Virus record (IMG/VR): IMGVR_UViG_3300037424_000507
Span: 1-36,841 of that record
Source: a virus
Lineage: Duplodnaviria > Caudoviricetes
DNA: 36,841 nucleotides
Strand: one strand, 5' to 3'
The translations under genes were made by a program, and so were the position numbers. The notes beneath the pieces are model-generated. The model ran no database searches, had not been told where the DNA came from, and saw only the letters and a program-made list of their open reading frames with translations. Of this stretch, positions 1-36,673 are shown piece by piece (position 1 is the first letter of the stretch; every line of letters begins with the position of its first letter).

Positions 1-98
1 AAAGCGATCACTATAAATATGATCGCCGGTGCGAGCTGAGCGCCTGAGGTCAGGAATTGAATGGGATCGAATGAGAATTGCATTTTGTCCTCCGCTAG
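1..98. repeat. 98-bp exact direct repeat, copy 1 (5' end and RBS of the holin-like gene)
   Basis: Base-for-base match to 36151-36248; the copies diverge after ...tccgctag. Confidence 0.97.
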
Positions 99-100
99 GT

Positions 101-134
101 AAAACAAAAAGACCGATGTCGAATGACATCGGTC
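101..134 (-). terminator. Intrinsic terminator in late leader (version A)
   Basis: Minus strand GACCGATGTC-attc-GACATCGGTC followed by TTTTTGTTTT. Confidence 0.85.
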
Positions 135-164
135 GGTAATCCGATTGTAGCGGAGATTATCCGC

Positions 165-401
165 TTAACCTGCCTTGATTGTAGCAGAAATACTCTTACC
201 GGTCAATCTATATAATAGCTTTTCCAGCTGCTTCTCACTGGACCAGAAGTGATACTCCGCACCGCAGCTGCAGATGCCGTGCGCGGAATACAGCTCCACG
301 TTCCCGATCTGGATCCACACCTGGCCTTCATGCTCGATATATTTCCCGATCAGCCGGTCACAAGATTGACAATTTACCGCATTAGTCTCGTTTTCGCTCA
401 T
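165..401 (-). CDS. Small Zn-ribbon protein (CxxC...CxC), Com-like putative late regulator, version A
   Basis: CQSCDRLIG...HGICSCGAEYHF; clear homolog of 36344-36673; AGGAGG RBS. Confidence 0.7.
   Translation of the reverse strand: MSENETNAVNCQSCDRLIGKYIEHEGQVWIQIGNVELYSAHGICSCGAEYHFWSSEKQLEKLLYRLTGKSISATIKAG
178..206 (-). promoter_or_regulatory. Sigma70-type late promoter (version A)
   Basis: TTGACC (206-201), 17-bp spacer ending TGc, TACAAT (183-178); same architecture at 36356-36384. Confidence 0.75.
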
Positions 402-4271: not shown

Positions 4272-4461
4272 GGCCATTTCTACAAAACTCACAATCCTGA
4301 ATATGATTCCTCAGCCTCCATAGCGCCCGCTGGTATTTATAGTCACCTTGCTGATCGCAGATCGCCATCTTGGACCGCTCGTCGAGATAAGGTGGGTGGA
4401 CGAGCTGCAGGCAGACCGCGTACCACTCACGACGCAGCTGGTCTGCGATAATACACATCAT
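4246..4461 (-). CDS. Hypothetical protein
   Basis: Coupled to the initiator stop; HxxxCxxC at C-terminus. Confidence 0.5.
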   Translation of the reverse strand: MMCIIADQLRREWYAVCLQLVHPPYLDERSKMAICDQQGDYKYQRALWRLRNHIQDCEFCRNGHETAVSAN

Positions 4462-5267
4462 CAAAGGCGCTCCCACTCTGCATAACGTACCAGATCTTCA
4501 GGACTGTTGCGCAGGTCTGGCTTCCCCCGGCCAGCGCCATTGGTAGGCTTGCGGCGGCTAGCACCGGCCAAAGGACCGGCCGTGCCTTGGCCGGCCGCAC
4601 CTGCCGGCTTTCCGCGCCCGTTGTCTTTGCCTTCAGCCTCCCAGCGATTTAAGATGGCCGTAAAGTATGCCAGGCTGCGCTTGTTCTGCTCGACAGAGAT
4701 GATCATTGCATCGATGATCCAGTCCCTGGGATATCGGTCCAGTAATTCCAGGATCTTCTCTCGAGTTGTCTCTGTAATTTCTCCAATATTCTCATGGTAG
4801 TGAGAAAAAACAGCCGCAGCAGCCGCTTTCTTCTCTGCTTCTTCTTCTAACTCTTTATCTATATCTACTTCTATATCTATCTCTTTATCTTCTTCTGCGG
4901 AACGTTTCGTTTCATCTCCGTTTCGATCTCGTTTCATCTGTGTTTCCCGTTCTCGGAAGCGACGCACGCGCTCAGTGTTGCTCACATGCGCCTGACGCTC
5001 TTTAAATTTGGTGACCATCCAGCCCAGCTCGGTCTCGGTCACTATCCCGATTTCTGCTAAGGTCCGTAGGTTCTCACAGAGCCTGTTTTCTTCGACCCTG
5101 AGCCTCCACGCCATATCAGCCACGGGCGGCAGTGTACCGTCTCTACCGTGATCACCAGCCAAAAGAAAGAGCTCAACCACGCGCCGCCAGAGATAGTCCG
5201 GCAGCCTGGCCATCTTGGGATCGTCCAGGATCTCGTGGTAGAGTTTGATGAAATAGAAGGAAGTCAT
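4461..5267 (-). CDS. Phage replication initiator (replisome-organizer N-terminus + DnaD domain)
   Basis: FIKLYHEILDDPK N-terminus, ERVRRFRER, SLAYFTAILNRW (DnaD YxxxILxxW). Confidence 0.85.
   Translation of the reverse strand: MTSFYFIKLYHEILDDPKMARLPDYLWRRVVELFLLAGDHGRDGTLPPVADMAWRLRVEENRLCENLRTLAEIGIVTETELGWMVTKFKERQAHVSNTERVRRFRERETQMKRDRNGDETKRSAEEDKEIDIEVDIDKELEEEAEKKAAAAAVFSHYHENIGEITETTREKILELLDRYPRDWIIDAMIISVEQNKRSLAYFTAILNRWEAEGKDNGRGKPAGAAGQGTAGPLAGASRRKPTNGAGRGKPDLRNSPEDLVRYAEWERL
4844..4955. repeat. Iteron-like CGTTTC(AT) repeats plus AT-rich tract; putative origin inside the initiator gene
   Basis: cgtttcatct / cgtttcgatct / cgtttcatct at ~4908-4939 next to a tct/tat-rich tract. 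Confidence 0.5.
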
Positions 5268-11202: not shown

Positions 11203-11421
11203 CTATCCGGTTTCGGAAACGTTCTCGACTTCACGCTCAGCTTCGAGTGCTTCGCGCCCCTGCTCGGTGATGCGGTAACGATCTGTAAACCATTCATCAA
11301 TAATCTGACGAAGAGTTAGAGAAATATTGAATAGTTTGCGCTCGTGACTGACTTTTTTGATAAGCTCGTTTTGCTTACGGGTGATGCTAAAACCCCTGGT
11401 AATTATTTCATGATCTTCCAT
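11203..11421 (-). CDS. Small DNA-binding protein at the Cro position (RHH-like)
   Basis: Divergent from the repressor; strand-helix-helix pattern FSIT...NISLTLRQIIDEW. Confidence 0.55.
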   Translation of the reverse strand: MEDHEIITRGFSITRKQNELIKKVSHERKLFNISLTLRQIIDEWFTDRYRITEQGREALEAEREVENVSETG

Positions 11422-11460
11422 AGTTCACCTCAAGAATACAATTCGCTTTCATGTGAATAT

Positions 11461-11488
11461 ATTATACATAGATTGCAAAGTTTGTCAA
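11461..11488 (-). promoter_or_regulatory. Consensus early lytic promoter
   Basis: TTGACA (11488-11483), 16 bp, TATAAT (11466-11461). Confidence 0.8.
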
Positions 11489-11547
11489 TACCCGAAAACT
11501 ATTCCGCTTCCTATGAATGCGAGATTAATGACAAAATGTATTCAGAA

Positions 11548-11997
11548 ATGAATGGAAGTTTTAGTGATTGGTTAAATAAACAATTAATAGATAGGGAATT
11601 GTCTCAAGCAGCATTGGCAAGATTATCCGGCTTGAGTAGAGGAACTATCAGTAATCTAATAAATAATGTAAGAAATCCGGGGCCTGATGTTTTAGAAGCA
11701 ATTTCAATCGGTCTTAAATTGCCAAAGGAGAGTGTATATAGAGCGGCCGGCCTTTTAGATGCAAGGCCATCTGGCAATGGACGCTTTGAAGAACTTAAAT
11801 ACTTATATGCGCAATTACCTGACCGAGATCAAGCAGAGATAATCGATTTCATCCGCCTCAAGCTGGAACGCCACGAGCAGCTCATCGCAGAGCTTAAAAA
11901 GAAATATAACCCGTTTCCACCGGTGGATAGCGACCAGGCCTGGGAGGTAATGAAAGACTATCTGAGATTGTTAGGAGTGAAAGTTACAGAACGCTGA
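11548..11997 (+). CDS. XRE/CI-type HTH repressor
   Basis: LSQAALARLSGLSRGTISNL HTH; start 11536 or 11548; no S24 domain. Confidence 0.88.
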   Translation: MNGSFSDWLNKQLIDRELSQAALARLSGLSRGTISNLINNVRNPGPDVLEAISIGLKLPKESVYRAAGLLDARPSGNGRFEELKYLYAQLPDRDQAEIIDFIRLKLERHEQLIAELKKKYNPFPPVDSDQAWEVMKDYLRLLGVKVTER

Positions 11998-12341: not shown

Positions 12342-13865
12342 ATAAATAAAACCACCCCCTTCGAAGCCGGTGCACGTGCGATTGGATATTTAAGGGATAG
12401 TGGAGGAGAAGCCCAAGAGTTATCCGTCCTGCAGCAAGAAGCCTCCCTGCGCGCATGGTGCAGAGAAAACGGCCTGCAGCTCGTGCGCATCTTCGCCGAC
12501 GCCGCCAGGCCGGGCAACACCACAACCGGCAGGGATAGTTTTCTCGATATGGTCGAAGCGCTGGTCAAGAATAAGCTCGACGTTTCCGGCGTGCTGCTGT
12601 GGTCTTATAGTCGTTTCGCCCGTTCCTTCGACGACACCGCCTACTACCTGGCCAGCATCCGCCGTGCCGGCTACATCGTCCATTCCATCACCGACGCCAT
12701 CCCTGACACACTGGATGGCAGGCTGTTCGAGAGCGTGCTGGCCTGGAAGGACGCCAGGCAGCGCGTAGATCTCAGCCGGGATATCAAGCGTGGAAAAGCA
12801 TACATGGTCACCGTACACCATGCCTGGCCAGGCGGGCGGCCACCCACCGGATACCAGCTCGAGCAGGCCGAGGTAGGGCTGCGCCGTGACGGCAAGCCTC
12901 ACCGCATCAGCCGCCTGGTGCCAGGTCCCTATGCTGAGAAAATCGCCGGCGCCTTCGAGATGCGCGCCGCTGGCGCATCTGTATTCGATATCTACGAGCA
13001 CTATCCCACCCTGACCGGCTCGGTGGCATCCCTGAGCCGCATCATCAACAATCCTATCTATTCCGGTGATCTCCGCTACGCCGGGCAGCTCATCACGAAT
13101 TATTGCACTCCGATCGTCGATCGAGAAATATGGATTGCAGCCCAGCGCGTCAATAAGGCCCGCCGCGAGCGGCATGGCACCCACCACCCGCGCACGGTGA
13201 ATTCCCGCTTCATCCTGACCGGGCTGCTCGTTTGTGCCAGATGCGGAGCTCACATGGTCGGGGCCGTCATGCGCCGGAAGCCTTATAAGGAATATACCTA
13301 CTACCGCTGTGGCAGCTATTACAATAACCCGGGCACCTGTGGAGCTCCGGCCATCCGAAAGGACACGCTCGAGCGCCTGGTGCTGGATAAGCTCAGGGAG
13401 AAGATCCTTATGCCCCAGGTGCTGGCTGACCTTCAGGCGCGTGCCCTCGAGCACTCGGACGACGGCAACCTCGAGCGCCGGCAGGCTGAGCTGCAACTCG
13501 AGCTGAAGGACTTACAAAGTCGCATCACCCGTATCATCGCAGCCATCGAGCAGGCAGGTCACAGTGCCGCACTGCTGAAAAATCTTGCAGATCTGGAAGA
13601 AAAGCACCAGGAAATCCAGCAGAGAGCGCTACAGTGCGAGCTCGAGCTCTCTCAGCGTGCCAATCTGGACCTGGAGACGCTGGATGTGGGAGAGCTGGCA
13701 GCATCTGCCCGCGAGCTGCTGAACTCAGGAGATATCGCCAGGCAGCGTACTGTCGTGCGGGGCTTTGTGCGAGAGATAAAAGTTATGCTTGAAAACGAGG
13801 TAGTGAAAGGGGAATTGTGGTATTATTTACCTGGGGAGGATACCGGCGATTACATACCTTTATGA
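12342..13865 (+). CDS. Large serine recombinase (integrase); true start upstream of the ORF-track call
   Basis: In-frame GYLRDS catalytic motif at 12384-12401, SRFAR, recombinase domain, CxxC...C...C Zn ribbon, coiled coil; frame open from 12339. Confidence 0.88.
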   Translation: MNKTTPFEAGARAIGYLRDSGGEAQELSVLQQEASLRAWCRENGLQLVRIFADAARPGNTTTGRDSFLDMVEALVKNKLDVSGVLLWSYSRFARSFDDTAYYLASIRRAGYIVHSITDAIPDTLDGRLFESVLAWKDARQRVDLSRDIKRGKAYMVTVHHAWPGGRPPTGYQLEQAEVGLRRDGKPHRISRLVPGPYAEKIAGAFEMRAAGASVFDIYEHYPTLTGSVASLSRIINNPIYSGDLRYAGQLITNYCTPIVDREIWIAAQRVNKARRERHGTHHPRTVNSRFILTGLLVCARCGAHMVGAVMRRKPYKEYTYYRCGSYYNNPGTCGAPAIRKDTLERLVLDKLREKILMPQVLADLQARALEHSDDGNLERRQAELQLELKDLQSRITRIIAAIEQAGHSAALLKNLADLEEKHQEIQQRALQCELELSQRANLDLETLDVGELAASARELLNSGDIARQRTVVRGFVREIKVMLENEVVKGELWYYLPGEDTGDYIPL

Positions 13866-18196: not shown

Positions 18197-20431
18197 TTAT
18201 CCTCTTTGGTGCATCAGTTCCAGCAGGCGCACCTGACGCGCCAGGTCATCGGACGTTTGTAACGGGCTGGCTGCCTGGATTACATAACTCCAGCTGTTCG
18301 TGATATTACCAGGACTGCCTGTCAATCCTAATCTCTGCTGAAATTCTGGCAGGGTATAAGTACTCAGTTCCTTCATAGCTGCATTAATCCCTCGCAGGCT
18401 TTTCTCGAATGGCGAAGGACTTTTACCTAACAGGACCTCCAACCATTCTGGAATTTGGATCGGATTTTTTAATTTTTCGATTAAATCTCCGAACCACCCA
18501 ACCAGATCCTCGATAACGCCCACAACATTACTAACGCCCGCAAATAACGGATCAATAATTTCCTCTTTAAACCATTCCAGCTTCGGACCAATATCATCAC
18601 GGATAAAATCATGCACCGTTTGCAGCGCGGGCTGCAGCGTTTCAGTCCATAAATCGGATAATGACTGGACCGCACCGCCTACATGCTCTTCAAGCCAGGG
18701 GACCAGGGTATCACGCAGGAACGGTATGAGGGTATCGCCCAGCCAGGCCCACACCTGGTTGATCGCCGGCTGCAGGGTTTCAGTCCAGAAATCGGATAGG
18801 ATCTGCAGCGCTTCCGGCACCTGTACTTGCAGCCAGGGAACAAGCGTATCTCGCAGGAACGGGATAACCGTCGTTTCCAGGAAATGCCAAACGGTTTCAA
18901 TGGCTGGTTTTAATATATCCTCCCAGAAATCGCTCAGGATCTGCAGCGCCTTGGGGATATATTCCTGCAGCCAGGGAACGACTTTATCTTGAAAGAACGG
19001 GATAAGAACGGTAGATAACCAGTTCCAAACAGTTTCTATGGCTGGTTTCAGCGTACCTGTCCAGAAATCGCTCAGGACCTGCAGCGCTTTAGGTATTTTG
19101 TCCTGCAGCCAGGGAATGATCGTATTCTGAAAGAACGGGATAAGGACCGTAGATAACCAGGTCCAGACGGCCTGGATAGCAGGCTGCAGCACAGTTGTCC
19201 AAAAGTCGCTCAGCCGCTGAATTGCTACAGGTAGAAATTCTCCAATCCAAGGAATGACTTGTTCTTGAACTACTTTTATAATGCTTTGAAAAGACGGAAC
19301 AAGCTGACCAGCCACTTGACCGATCATCCCCTTAAACCCGGCCTTGAGTCCTCCAACACTATCATTGAGATCCGCCAAGCCTGCGACTGTCTCTTCACCC
19401 ATCACAGCGCCAAGCTTGTGCGCCTCATCGCTCATGGCAGCCAAGCCTTCAGTGCCCAAATTAATCAGCGGGTTTAATTCCTGCGCGGATTTCCCGAACA
19501 GATCCATTGCAAGCTGGTCGCGCTCCGTCTCATTCCCCACGGACCCGAGTGCAGCGACCGCGTCGAAGAAGATCGCTTCACTGTCCCGCATCTGGCCGTT
19601 GCTGTCACGAACGCTGACCCCTAATTTACTAAAGGCATCTGCTGCAGGCGTTCCTGCCTTTTCTGCATCGTCCAGGCTGCGCACCATCCTGGCCATAGAA
19701 CCGGTCATAGTTTCCACATCGGTGCCGGTCTGGCCAGCGATGTAATTCAGCTCCTGCAATTTGGTCGTTGTGATCCCGACCTTTTCGGCGGTCTCGACCA
19801 GCTCGTCAGATGCAGCAGCAGATTTTAGTACCATCGCGCCGATACCGGTCACAGCCCCAGCCGCACCGGCGACCAGGCCTGCAGCCATGCCTGCAGCCAC
19901 TTTCGCCACGCCACCGGCCATCTTGCCCAGGCCGCCGACGGTATCGCCTAATTTCCCTTTCAGGTCGTGAAGCGCATTCTTAAATTTTTCTGTTGCGCCG
20001 GTCGCTTGTTTTTCCTCCCCTTCCAGCTTATCCGTCTCTTTGGCGGTTTTGCCTTCTTCGGATCTCATCTCGGAAAGTGCGGTTTCGGTTTTTCCCAATT
20101 CCGCTTCCATTTTTCCGAGCGTTTCTTTTTCCTTGTTTAACTTGATTTCCAGGTCCTGCGCGGCCTTACTGGTCTTTCCCTTTTCAGCTGCAACGCGCTT
20201 ATACTCCCCTTCCAACGCAGCCACTTTCGATTTCTGAACATCCATCTGGCCGGTGAGAGACTTCATCCTCAATTCCAGGCCACTTGCATCCTTCGCCCAA
20301 TCCCCCAGGCCTGCTGCAGACGCGCGAAAAGAGCTTTCCAGGACCCGCAGTTCTCGGTTCATGGCTGCCAGGCCGGTTTTGAAATCGGTGGTGTCCAGCC
20401 CTACGCGACCTGAAAGATTATTATCTGTCAT
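18197..20431 (-). CDS. Tape measure protein
   Basis: 744 aa, helical, aromatic periodic repeats, downstream of the chaperone. Confidence 0.92.
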   Translation of the reverse strand: MTDNNLSGRVGLDTTDFKTGLAAMNRELRVLESSFRASAAGLGDWAKDASGLELRMKSLTGQMDVQKSKVAALEGEYKRVAAEKGKTSKAAQDLEIKLNKEKETLGKMEAELGKTETALSEMRSEEGKTAKETDKLEGEEKQATGATEKFKNALHDLKGKLGDTVGGLGKMAGGVAKVAAGMAAGLVAGAAGAVTGIGAMVLKSAAASDELVETAEKVGITTTKLQELNYIAGQTGTDVETMTGSMARMVRSLDDAEKAGTPAADAFSKLGVSVRDSNGQMRDSEAIFFDAVAALGSVGNETERDQLAMDLFGKSAQELNPLINLGTEGLAAMSDEAHKLGAVMGEETVAGLADLNDSVGGLKAGFKGMIGQVAGQLVPSFQSIIKVVQEQVIPWIGEFLPVAIQRLSDFWTTVLQPAIQAVWTWLSTVLIPFFQNTIIPWLQDKIPKALQVLSDFWTGTLKPAIETVWNWLSTVLIPFFQDKVVPWLQEYIPKALQILSDFWEDILKPAIETVWHFLETTVIPFLRDTLVPWLQVQVPEALQILSDFWTETLQPAINQVWAWLGDTLIPFLRDTLVPWLEEHVGGAVQSLSDLWTETLQPALQTVHDFIRDDIGPKLEWFKEEIIDPLFAGVSNVVGVIEDLVGWFGDLIEKLKNPIQIPEWLEVLLGKSPSPFEKSLRGINAAMKELSTYTLPEFQQRLGLTGSPGNITNSWSYVIQAASPLQTSDDLARQVRLLELMHQRG
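18600..19230 (-). repeat. About five 138-bp (46-aa) tandem repeats in the tape measure gene
   Basis: LSD(F/L)W codons recur at 18647, 18785, 18923, 19061 and 19199. Confidence 0.85.
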
Positions 20432-26418: not shown

Positions 26419-27668
26419 TCTTCCCTCATTTCTTGGTTATTCATTGGAACGGCGTCGGTCACTGCCGGATTTTCAATGGGCATGATACTGCTCATCATGT
26501 AATAACGGTCTCCTTCGGGATAGGCACTCATATCATCTTTCTCTCGCGCCTCGTTTGGCGTCATCATTCCATTTTGTATTCGTACTGACATGCTGTCTGC
26601 TCTTGCCTTGCTGTCCATCCGCAGCAGGCTATCCCTTACGAAGCGAAAATAAATGTTGACCTGCTCCTCCCTCGATAGCCAGCGAATACGCGCTCCTTCC
26701 TCCCACGGCACCAGGTAAGCATCCAACGTACCGGTCAAGTATTCAATATATTTCTGCTCATTGGAGTTATAAGCTTCCTTGCCGCGGTTGAGCATGTGCT
26801 CAGGTAGCCCAAAGAAATTGCAGATATCCCGATCTCCAGCATCGATCGATTCCAGGAATTGCGCATCCTTGAGCTGGATGGTGATTGGCTCGAATTTTGT
26901 GATACGACTGTCGAAGACTGCCAAACGGTAGGCATTATCAGACCCGCTCATCTGTTCCTCGTAAACCCCACGCACTTTATCCCGCGCTTCTTTCGACAAC
27001 TCGCCTGCCATCTGGACATAAGCAGCGGGCAGAAATCCCTGTTTGTATAGCATGCTTTGAGTCTTATGAGCTGCAATTTGCCGCCCGAAAGTCTCCCTGG
27101 CAAATGTGATTACCCCGCGCCCCATAAATCCAGTGGTATCTGGATTGATCAGCAGATGCAGAATTTCCACGGATGGAATGAACTCCGTGATGTTATTGCT
27201 GAATGTATGCCGGTACCACAGGTTCCCGTCCAGGTCGAATACTGGCACTGTCCTGTCAGCCGGCAGGATCAATAATTGTCGCTCTCCGACTGTCGGGCTC
27301 CAGATGTATGCATTCCCATAAAACAGCAGCCATTCGATGCTCGCCTTTTTGAAGAGAAACGGCGTCCAACCCCACAGGTTGGGGGAGATCTGCAGCAGGT
27401 AAGCCATGTTGCGCGTTACCACGTCCGGTTGTATCTGCTCGATGTTGCGCCCTACCCGCCGTATGACCTGGAAGGGCATTTTTGCCACATCATCGCTGAT
27501 GATGTTCTTTGCCCGGTATGCCGTAGCAATCGATTGGGCTCCGGGGACAGAGACGCGTTCTCCGGATTTGGTCGTATAGCCCCAGGTAGGCGCATAATCC
27601 GCTCTTGGGCTGGCGTTCGGGTCTTCCTTGGGCTTCGAGCTGGAAGAAAATAACTTAGTCAGCAGCAT
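26415..27668 (-). CDS. Portal protein, HK97 family
   Basis: LLFYGNAY, EILH, DAQFLE, MTPNEAR. Confidence 0.94.
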   Translation of the reverse strand: MLLTKLFSSSSKPKEDPNASPRADYAPTWGYTTKSGERVSVPGAQSIATAYRAKNIISDDVAKMPFQVIRRVGRNIEQIQPDVVTRNMAYLLQISPNLWGWTPFLFKKASIEWLLFYGNAYIWSPTVGERQLLILPADRTVPVFDLDGNLWYRHTFSNNITEFIPSVEILHLLINPDTTGFMGRGVITFARETFGRQIAAHKTQSMLYKQGFLPAAYVQMAGELSKEARDKVRGVYEEQMSGSDNAYRLAVFDSRITKFEPITIQLKDAQFLESIDAGDRDICNFFGLPEHMLNRGKEAYNSNEQKYIEYLTGTLDAYLVPWEEGARIRWLSREEQVNIYFRFVRDSLLRMDSKARADSMSVRIQNGMMTPNEAREKDDMSAYPEGDRYYMMSSIMPIENPAVTDAVPMNNQEMREE

Positions 27669-35562: not shown

Positions 35563-35898
35563 CTATTTCCTCCACGCATCGTCATCGAAGTCTTTCAATG
35601 CTGGAACATCAATGTCATGCTCACGCAGCGTAATGCGCAAGGTAGCGATATATTCCCTCAATACCAGGTTCTCCTGGAGAAGGCGCCGATTTTCGGTCTC
35701 TAAATTTCTTACACGATCACGCAGCAAGCCGAGGTCCGTACGCAACAGATCCAGATCTTCTCTCTTCGCCGCCCTACGAGACGTGATCCAGGAGCCGACA
35801 GCAGCTCCCATCGTAGTCATTATCGGTCCGATGGCGGTGAGTAGAGCTGCCAGGGCAGCAATAAGCAGAAGAAGCTGCTCATGGGTAAACTCTTCCAT
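35563..35898 (-). CDS. Membrane/coiled-coil lysis-module protein
   Basis: N-terminal TM then coiled coil; between holin-like gene and lysin. Confidence 0.6.
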   Translation of the reverse strand: MEEFTHEQLLLLIAALAALLTAIGPIMTTMGAAVGSWITSRRAAKREDLDLLRTDLGLLRDRVRNLETENRRLLQENLVLREYIATLRITLREHDIDVPALKDFDDDAWRK

Positions 35899-36233
35899 TA
35901 CCCTTCACCTTGCGGCGTAATCCCCAATGCCGCAGCAATGATCTTTTTAAGCAGCTCCTTGGCCTGGTCGTAGAGCAGCGGGGGCGTGGCCGCCATTACA
36001 AGCGCATAAACCAGGATACTAAAATAATCGGCAAACGTCGCCGGCGCGAACCTGGCCAGCTGTGCTCCACCACCCAGGAGCAATCCAAGGATGAGTGCAA
36101 AGGCAAGCTGACCTTTACCGGCCAGGCCGAAGGTACCGGCAAAATATGTAAAAGCGATCACTATAAATATGATCGCCGGTGCGAGCTGAGCGCCTGAGGT
36201 CAGGAATTGAATGGGATCGAATGAGAATTGCAT
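35898..36233 (-). CDS. Putative holin (3 TM), first late gene
   Basis: Three hydrophobic helices; GGAGG RBS; ATG 36233. Confidence 0.65.
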   Translation of the reverse strand: MQFSFDPIQFLTSGAQLAPAIIFIVIAFTYFAGTFGLAGKGQLAFALILGLLLGGGAQLARFAPATFADYFSILVYALVMAATPPLLYDQAKELLKKIIAAALGITPQGEG

Positions 36234-36248
36234 TTTGTCCTCCGCTAG
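36151..36248. repeat. 98-bp exact direct repeat, copy 2
   Basis: Identical to 1-98. Confidence 0.97.
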
Positions 36249-36276: not shown

Positions 36277-36312
36277 AAAATAAAAAAACCCGATGCCAAA
36301 AACAGCATCGGG
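36277..36312 (-). terminator. Intrinsic terminator in late leader (version B)
   Basis: Minus strand CCCGATGC-8 nt-GCATCGGG followed by TTTTTTTATTTT. Confidence 0.85.
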
Positions 36313-36343
36313 CGGTAAGTCCGACTATTCCCGCTTGGGATAT

Positions 36344-36673
36344 TCAACTATTAGGATTATATATTATTTTTTGAACAAGGTCAATCGGTTGAGCAGCGCG
36401 TTCACCGGCAGGATCGGCCGTGCCCGCCCGGGACCCATGCGGTCCAGGGTCTAGCCGATTGATGCGTTTCCTTTTAATCTTAGTGATAAGCCGCTCGAAG
36501 CTAAGATCGCTGCTCAAGAAGTGAAATTCCGCACCGCAGACACAGGTCCCATGCGCTTTATACAGCACCACGTTCCCGATTTTGAGATGCACCTGGTCAC
36601 CGACCTGCTCGTACTTCCCGATCAGCCGGCCGCAGCCCTGGCAATTAATTGAATTAGCTGTGTTTTCGGTCAT
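36344..36673 (-). CDS. Small Zn-ribbon protein, version B
   Basis: CQGCGRLIG...HGTCVCGAEFHF; homolog of 165-401. Confidence 0.7.
   Translation of the reverse strand: MTENTANSINCQGCGRLIGKYEQVGDQVHLKIGNVVLYKAHGTCVCGAEFHFLSSDLSFERLITKIKRKRINRLDPGPHGSRAGTADPAGERAAQPIDLVQKIIYNPNS
36356..36384 (-). promoter_or_regulatory. Sigma70-type late promoter (version B)
   Basis: TTGACC (36384-36379), 17 bp, TATAAT (36361-36356). Confidence 0.78.

Follow-up and report, generated by a model that had tools for sequence, protein, structure and literature searches.

A conserved promoter-hairpin-terminator leader before the late genes of an Anaerolineae phage group, with a candidate zinc-ribbon antiterminator encoded beside it

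Late transcription in phage lambda starts at a strong promoter, pR′, and passes a short leader and the intrinsic terminator tR′ before it reaches the lysis and virion genes; the early operon ends with the gene of the regulator Q, immediately before this unit, and Q uses a promoter DNA site and a sigma-dependent pause. In HK022 the put RNA itself contacts the polymerase, and in phage P2 the late promoters are activated by the DNA-binding protein Ogr. Many temperate phages have no recognisable late regulator. According to PMC3369931, the RNA targets of the ANTAR proteins EutV, AmiR and NasR are pairs of hexaloop hairpins in which loop position 1 is A and position 4 is G. The terminator's 5′ arm is overlapped by a small weak hairpin whose loop is conserved, and several such sites may lie along one operon, EutV acting at four terminators of a single operon. 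The same source presents the 29–30-nt RAT of BglG, SacY and LicT as a protein-stabilised antiterminator hairpin which excludes the terminator. Phage Mu encodes Com, a tiny C4 zinc protein which, according to PMC6483171, binds the loop of an RNA hairpin located immediately behind the gene that encodes it.

The window analysed here, i.e. the whole stretch of DNA, is an IMG/VR record of 36,841 nt (Duplodnaviria; Caudoviricetes). A first-pass annotation had described in it two divergent copies (A and B) of a six-part arrangement consisting of a small Zn-ribbon gene, a promoter inside its 3′ end, a 5′ hairpin (hairpin 3), a second hairpin (hairpin 4, here P2), a terminator sharing a strand with P2, and the ribosome binding site (RBS) of the first late gene. 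All six elements were found on the minus strand where they had been placed, and their order is the same in both copies:

1..98, minus strand: exact 98-nt repeat (= 36151-36248) with the RBS and start of the holin-like first late gene
93-89 and 83, minus strand: RBS and late-gene ATG behind copy A
101..134, minus strand: intrinsic terminator A, stem 134-111, U-tract 110-101
128..145, minus strand: candidate antiterminator hairpin P2 of copy A, 5 bp, 8-nt loop 133-140
150..164, minus strand: hairpin 3 of copy A, containing the GG strand
165..401, minus strand: copy A Zn-ribbon gene, 78 aa, CxxC...CxC, last gene of the early/replication operon
178..206, minus strand: late promoter A, TTGACC 206-201, 17 nt, TACAAT 183-178, TG extension, inside the 3′ end of the Zn-ribbon gene
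420-1349: XerC/D-like tyrosine recombinase, directly upstream of the copy A Zn-ribbon gene
11344-11997: repressor gene, with the lytic promoter at 11488 beside it
12483-13865: serine integrase
35898..36233, minus strand: first late gene, holin-like membrane protein, heading the ~22-kb lysis/packaging/head/tail operon
36233, minus strand: ATG of the holin-like gene after copy B
36278..36313, minus strand: intrinsic terminator B, stem 36313-36288 and U-tract
36307..36325, minus strand: candidate antiterminator hairpin P2 of copy B, 5 bp, 9-nt loop
36329..36340, minus strand: hairpin 3 of copy B
36344..36673, minus strand: copy B Zn-ribbon gene, 109 aa, Zn domain aa 1-72
36356..36384, minus strand: late promoter B, TTGACC 36384-36379, 17 nt, TATAAT 36361-36356

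The window represents the circle of a temperate siphophage of 36,150 bp, since the exact identity of 1-98 and 36151-36248 closes 99-36248 into a circle in which copy A precedes the holin-like gene. The early/replication operon runs leftward from a perfect promoter at 11488 down to the XerC/D-like recombinase and the Zn-ribbon gene, and the late operon extends from the holin-like gene at 36233 over terminase, portal, head and tail genes to ~14.2 kb (about 14228). The holin-like gene itself matched no family in the family searches; at 13 of 66 homologous loci the gene in its position is a holin. Many early ORFs of the window are without annotation in Pfam, PHROGs and NCBIfam. The phage carries both a serine integrase and a tyrosine recombinase, and its tape measure gene contains 138-nt tandem repeats (18626-19208).

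The idea that both copies reside in one genome is not supported. Besides the repeat, a contig of sequencing run X1 that ends at 36248 runs on into copy A sequence (255-nt loose end), and the depth in X1 is ~18 over 34.7-35.5 kb versus 0.5-3.8 over copy B; this depth is a coarse, per-contig value from a run that is possibly the source sample and in which no piece spans the whole stretch, and the read-level check covers the copy B end of the contig only. Copy A is thus probably the phage's own switch, A and B probably do not share a genome, and copy B most likely stems from a rarer related phage joined at an assembly graph fork, where the repeat length of 98 would correspond to k-1 for k = 99. 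At window position 36293 a loose contig end in X1 reads into an apparent third version of the leader; more relatives may therefore be present in the sample.

Sigma70 scores of at least 10/12 occur at three sites only on the entire minus strand, namely at promoters A and B and at the lytic promoter beside the repressor gene. Both leaders are more stably folded than expected (z = -6.1 for A and -3.4 for B). The full-length leaders fold as the terminator; upon omission of the 3′ terminator arm both fold as hairpin 3 plus P2, and the 5′ arm of terminator A is the 3′ strand of the copy A P2. P2 lies at least 45 nt before the start codon in the window. The covariance model R2, derived from the leaders, scores at A and B alone in the window. 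For the copy A U-tract, pairing with the RBS region of the holin-like gene is predicted, and in relatives the U-tract is often broken by G and in many ends in AAC-like bases (alignment A6).

Compared with the described systems, the locus resembles lambda pR′/tR′ in the strong promoter, short leader and intrinsic terminator followed by lysis and virion genes, and in having a regulator gene, here a candidate one, directly before this unit where the early operon ends. Unlike in lambda, Q-family proteins are absent among the window ORFs, as are ArpU/RinA and sigma factors (Pfam and PHROGs on 67 ORFs, NCBIfam on 30), in agreement with the first-pass annotation. Where Q uses promoter DNA and a pause, an RNA hairpin overlaps the terminator here, and the element recurs without promoter inside late operons, which argues against promoter-DNA loading and processive read-through. 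As in the ANTAR targets, the 5′ arm of the terminator is overlapped by a small hairpin of low stability whose loop is conserved, and several sites occur along one operon. However, an ANTAR domain (PF03861) was not found in the window ORFs or the homologues, the hexaloop pattern of ANTAR RNAs does not occur, and instead of two hairpins there is a single one with a mostly 10-nt loop and an upstream GG strand, the 5′ hairpin not being conserved; moreover, ANTAR proteins control nitrogen metabolism, whereas the leader putatively controls phage late genes. By analogy to BglG, SacY and LicT, an antiterminator hairpin excludes the terminator and is proposed to be stabilised by a protein, but CAT and PRD domains are lacking in window ORFs and homologues, P2 is shorter than RAT (16-21 nt) with a large loop, and the timing, which is set by phosphorylation in BglG-type systems, would here come from protein synthesis. 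Like Mu Com, the candidate is a tiny phage protein with four Cys, encoded just upstream of the RNA hairpin that it is proposed to bind; Com activates translation of one gene, while the present element sits at a terminator and is predicted to gate transcription. The parallel with Com does not extend to homology (hhalign probability 17% over 14 columns, one CxxC knuckle). Altogether, the logic is that of BglG and ANTAR systems with new parts and in the role of lambda Q, and the locus is a member of none of them. No published description of the combination of Zn-ribbon gene and leader was found, subscription-journal papers lying outside the scope of that search. The loop sequence is absent from six supplement files of PMC10690425 on candidate phage RNAs; files 1, 2 and 4 of the supplement, which are not among these six, might contain the motif without a name.

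The Zn-ribbon protein is an unnamed family occurring in Anaerolineae prophages, as judged from sequence comparisons. The Zn domain of copy B (aa 1-72) is 53% identical to copy A, and both are sisters in the protein tree (support 97/90). A profile built from A, B and one relative detected 289 clusters at E <= 0.001, 57 of which reach E <= 1e-10. In the family alignment, comprising 136 of the best 150 listed clusters, the four Cys are kept in 135-136 of 136 sequences. Also conserved are a Gly and an HG motif preceding the second pair of Cys residues, a strand with an aromatic-His-aromatic pattern, and a helix at the C-terminus. The model predicted for copy A (pLDDT 81.5) shows a zinc ribbon rich in beta strands, with a single helix. 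Foldseek gave no match to it at E <= 0.001 and the best VIA fold match reached Z 2.1 (rmsd 4.7, 55 aligned residues), which does not establish a new fold. A PDB sequence search yielded nothing better than E 0.0026, and no Pfam, PHROG or NCBIfam family was named beyond weak generic zinc-ribbon and DUF matches; copy A also matches a family of minor head proteins, weakly and in part (E 0.00085). No Q-family antiterminator was found among the 25 top families matched by the 136 homologues. Counted from the first Cys, the net charge has a family median of +2, with 22/136 negative; the copy A protein has net charge 0 and pI 5.8. Host matches at E <= 0.001 were obtained in 23/301 genomes of the Anaerolineaceae-level family (several weak), 13/401 of the order and 2/401 of the class, and the named matches are nearly all Chloroflexota MAGs, one short contig being binned as Geobacteraceae. 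Searches of loci with a single protein or a small alignment recovered no true relatives (the candidates L003-L005 were false, L003 upon inspection), tblastn against GenBank phages gave weak Streptococcus matches only, a word-index protein search found one relative, and the ESM Atlas unnamed clusters only, at 0.92-0.93. Two Zn-ribbon paralogues are present in some phages (G1062:C1 at 26771-26989 and 38866-39030, G674:C16, L197), one of them divergent and distant from any leader. At L324 a CRISPR-DR2 repeat (1435-1464) lies immediately upstream of the Zn-ribbon gene.

Pattern scans and genome searches provided 63 unique homologous Zn-ribbon genes outside the window, family members being encoded at 26/44 viral, 14/120 genome and 4/119 metagenome loci. 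If the arrangement is functional, homologues should keep the leader downstream, and 56 of the 63 do so on the same contig, 52 of these leaders being recognised by covariance models R1 or R2 and four by eye (L016, L022, L295, L305). The distance from the Zn-ribbon stop codon is <= 200 nt in 32 cases; the other leaders follow beyond inserted genes or a second paralogue, for which distances of up to ~12 kb occur. The interval between gene and leader is also a cargo insertion site with varied genes (L008, L012, L015, L020, L023, L025, L072, L295, L299, L303), a feature that, like the upstream GG strand and the additional leaders inside late operons described below, goes beyond the first-pass annotation. 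The seven genes without leader comprise four on a short flank or at a contig end (L257, L314, L323, L301), a frameshifted gene (L316, 1.5 kb examined), a 42% fragment (L029) and one without late genes behind it (L100). The gene upstream of the Zn-ribbon gene varies, Prim-Pol (13/63) and DnaA_N (5) being found besides others. From the sequence neighbourhoods, the Zn-ribbon gene thus appears as the sole constant neighbour of the leader seen, constancy being assessed for the immediate upstream gene.

Approached from the RNA side, two 16-nt pattern scans gave 120 unique matches. A script called an overlapping terminator in 42 of them, 18 with a Zn-ribbon gene within <= 5 kb upstream; among the 78 matches without called terminator five have a Zn-ribbon gene and the rest are mostly coding matches. 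Ten leader-first virus records without nearby Zn-ribbon gene were searched as a whole: two carry one 7-9 kb upstream, and the eight without are fragments of 12-38% completeness. In host genomes (150 per scan, overlapping draws), R2 matched at E <= 0.003 in 10/150 family, 5/150 order and 1/150 class genomes, most matches being training sequences. Nine places were new, five of them on contigs with a Zn-ribbon gene, three in genomes without one and one a plain terminator (G824). Three host MAGs accordingly contain a leader and no Zn-ribbon gene in the genome (G306, G507, G783). No copy precedes host metabolic genes at E <= 0.003 in these three scans of 150 genomes each. In one of the three MAGs the leader (L493, G306:C61 979-1051) has no ORF behind it and lies near a host gene, possibly as a remnant.

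For the structural analysis 80 unique leader cores were curated, nine chance or upstream-duplicate model matches and four sequences without a P2 call having been dropped. P2 comprises 4-5 bp and 16-21 nt with loops of 6-11 nt (10 nt in 57/80). Its pair 2 is G-C in 57, A-U in 22 and G-U in one core, pair 3 is C-G in 64, U-G in 10 and U-A in six, and pair 4 is formed in 72/80. An inner register, in which the 5′ strand pairs with the loop CCG, was rejected as the A-U variants fit the outer register only. Permutation over 45 stem types gave 4.40 pairs versus 3.71 +/- 0.09 (0/10,000). In a MAFFT alignment of 67 cores, P2 exhibits 52 double-sided changes against 21.4 +/- 4.8 in shuffled data (0/500) and the terminator 98 against 31.0 (0/500), slid controls reaching at most 54% paired compared with 83.5% for P2; the covariation predicted for this hairpin is therefore present, with the qualification that the shuffles ignore relatedness. 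On the protein tree, which is poorly resolved (73 columns), the pair-2 swap is spread over many separate branches. As ~31 of the 80 cores came from pattern scans fixing the loop and inner pairs, independent checks weigh more. The 22 protein-first seeds, which were picked by a hairpin detector, contain 15 double-sided changes (1/500 shuffles). Of 13 new matches of R2, a model containing no P2 pairs, 12 form at least three P2 pairs (hand-set anchors) and the 13th pairs one base over; the weak or partial L503, L513, L301 and L518, and L169, in which P2 is broken, were left out of this check. Protein and loop variants covary only as far as shared ancestry predicts.

The overlap of hairpin and terminator noted in the two window copies extends to the family: the covarying P2 overlaps the covarying terminator in 76/80 cores, the terminator often taking part of the P2 loop as well, while in L298 it barely overlaps. 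The loop CC is kept in 31 of the 34 cores whose terminator leaves it unpaired, as expected of a binding site. With median energies of -4.1 kcal/mol for P2 versus -22.9 kcal/mol for the terminator, P2 would need a stabiliser. A -10-like box is located 14-40 nt upstream in 57/80 cores (TG extension in 38), so that the RNA would begin ~15 nt before P2. This leaves no room for a specifier stem, and a T-box reading, raised by a pheS leader weakly matched by R2 (E 0.027) and treated as false positive, was rejected. A DNA palindrome was rejected in favour of an RNA element, as G-U pairs are tolerated, the half-sites change, and loop length and spacing vary. Rfam 15 gave no match in the window at E <= 5 and, over 19 homologous loci, only a chance miRNA match (E 2.6) on a leader, in line with the expectation that the leader belongs to no known family. 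Tandem or duplicated P2-like hairpins ahead of a single terminator were observed in L037, L039 (462-566), L460 (52-138) and L214.

Hairpin 3, presumed to be part of the conserved leader, is indeed present in both window copies and is not conserved in the family, which keeps an A-rich stretch and a GG upstream of P2 instead. The GG strand lies inside hairpin 3 of copy A and is free in relatives; in copy B, GCGG (36334-36331) can alternatively pair with the loop CCGC (36315-36312), and in both copies hairpin 3 competes for this strand. The GG strand may therefore pair with the P2 loop (P1, 2-4 bp in most cores) into a pseudoknot, or P1 could belong to an earlier folding state. Where the loop CC or its neighbour is altered, the upstream strand is often altered to match (L019, L302, L313, L092, L020, L486, L492, L500, L507 and the L295/L508 pair). 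Comparison of cognate with swapped strands gave no P1 signal by longest helix, p = 0.17 by duplex energy over all cores (<= 0.045 with one per loop), a median p of 0.04 with a sequence anchor and, with a loop-anchored score, p = 0.053 when only new cores are used, 0.031 with all cores and <= 0.003 when each loop type is represented once. Because the score was refined over three attempts, P1 is graded as suggestive.

The first genes behind 66 leaders comprise 13 holins, 2 endolysins, 5 TerS, 5 scaffolds, 2 major head proteins, 1 virion protein, 1 tail chaperone, 10 others and 27 without match, which means that lysis, packaging or virion-type genes come first in 29/66. Two leaders per record were detected in L036, L338, L344, L364, L401, L474, L447/L467, G001, G435, G531 and G674/G1062, and at least seven leader copies have no -10 box. 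Repetition within one genome, partly without promoter, suggests a switch operating on the RNA and site by site.

Based on these data the leader is very probably an RNA attenuator. We further propose, with a probability of roughly 0.6, that the conserved promoter-hairpin-terminator leader before the late genes is switched on by the adjacent Zn-ribbon protein via the nascent RNA; its binding to the leader, for which the genomic linkage is the evidence, is somewhat more probable than its absence. The late promoter would be constitutive and, as the terminator is ~19 kcal/mol stronger than P2, termination is the predicted default, yielding an RNA of ~60-90 nt, so that lysis and virion genes would stay off during lysogeny and in the early phase of infection. 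The Zn-ribbon protein would appear late because its gene is the last of the repressor-controlled early/replication operon. Its target would be P2 with the loop, perhaps joined with the upstream GG strand into a P1/P2 pseudoknot; bound there, the protein would block the 5′ arm of the terminator and thereby allow read-through into the late genes. Such an action would proceed site by site along the late operon, which would explain why each internal terminator has a leader copy of its own. Protein-stabilised antiterminators as presented in PMC3369931 are built in this way, with conserved loops on weak stems at separate terminators. The protein is not strongly basic, which speaks against an RNA-binding role. 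If the proposal is true, it adds an RNA-binding protein family and a cis-regulatory RNA and brings BglG/ANTAR-type logic to a phage late switch, with a concrete candidate regulator for a phage group of the Anaerolineae, a lineage with almost no phage genetics. The parts are tiny (~75 aa, ~70 nt) and come with natural variants, so that orthogonal protein-RNA ON switches become testable, and the RNA motif marks late-operon starts in unannotated phage contigs.

The position of the Zn-ribbon gene, which takes the place of Q in lambdoid phages just before promoter, terminator and lysis genes, would also suit a late activator which, like Q, P7, gp39 or AlpA, acts via RNA polymerase; the hairpin would then be a loading or pause signal or a polymerase contact, and read-through would be processive. 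The modest charge of the protein fits a protein-protein role, and lambda Q is reportedly discussed with a zinc ribbon in PMC9388147. Yet a processive factor would not need full leaders inside late operons, several of them promoterless, and the direct overlap of P2 with the terminator also disagrees with it, which makes this explanation unlikely. The attenuator might also be real and respond to another trigger, be it a host protein, a small molecule in a new type of riboswitch, another phage protein or an antisense RNA. A compact, possibly pseudoknotted structure overlapping a terminator does resemble a riboswitch, three leaders reside in MAGs without Zn-ribbon gene, and the many unannotated early ORFs offer candidates. 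We nevertheless assign it a small chance, considering the absence of Rfam matches and of copies before host metabolic genes in the three scans, the free variation of loop and P1 bases in compensated variants and the lack of another constant neighbour as far as the immediate upstream gene is concerned.

In a third explanation the Zn-ribbon protein is a DNA-binding late-promoter activator of the Ogr type or a translational activator of the Com type, and the terminator does no more than close the early operon. Phages are known to encode small C4 Zn proteins with such functions, and PMC6483171 reports the binding of Com to a hairpin loop. But the near-consensus promoter lies upstream of the terminator, which activation alone would not pass, P2 is placed upstream of the terminator and not at the start codon, and the protein has no detectable relationship to Com, all of which render both variants highly improbable. 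The most sceptical explanation sees no switch at all, an ordinary leaky terminator setting the level of late gene expression and P2 arising as by-product of terminator symmetry. A structure-only leader scanner, rejected as too permissive, indeed returned 63 chance hairpin-plus-terminator candidates on the minus strand of the window. Chance would hardly produce the conserved loop and upstream sequence, fixed spacing, recurrent compensatory changes and tight linkage to one protein family, and we consider this explanation very improbable, too.

A more far-reaching version of the preferred antitermination model is offered tentatively and we would not yet bet on it: the ~75-aa Zn-ribbon family would recognise the P1 plus P2 pseudoknot and antiterminate site by site without Q, sigma factor or DNA activator, and satellites devoid of a Zn-ribbon gene might use the protein of a helper phage as induction signal. 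A small integrated element in one MAG (G507:C28; L504, 1091-7206) is possibly a satellite tuned in this manner to its helper's antiterminator. No virion genes were seen in the element and no Zn-ribbon gene in the genome. It carries a full leader at 4385-4466 ahead of a replication module, and its genes encode a tyrosine integrase, an HTH_36 replication protein, small HTH proteins and a membrane protein which is 41% identical to that encoded at 1578-2195 of the window.
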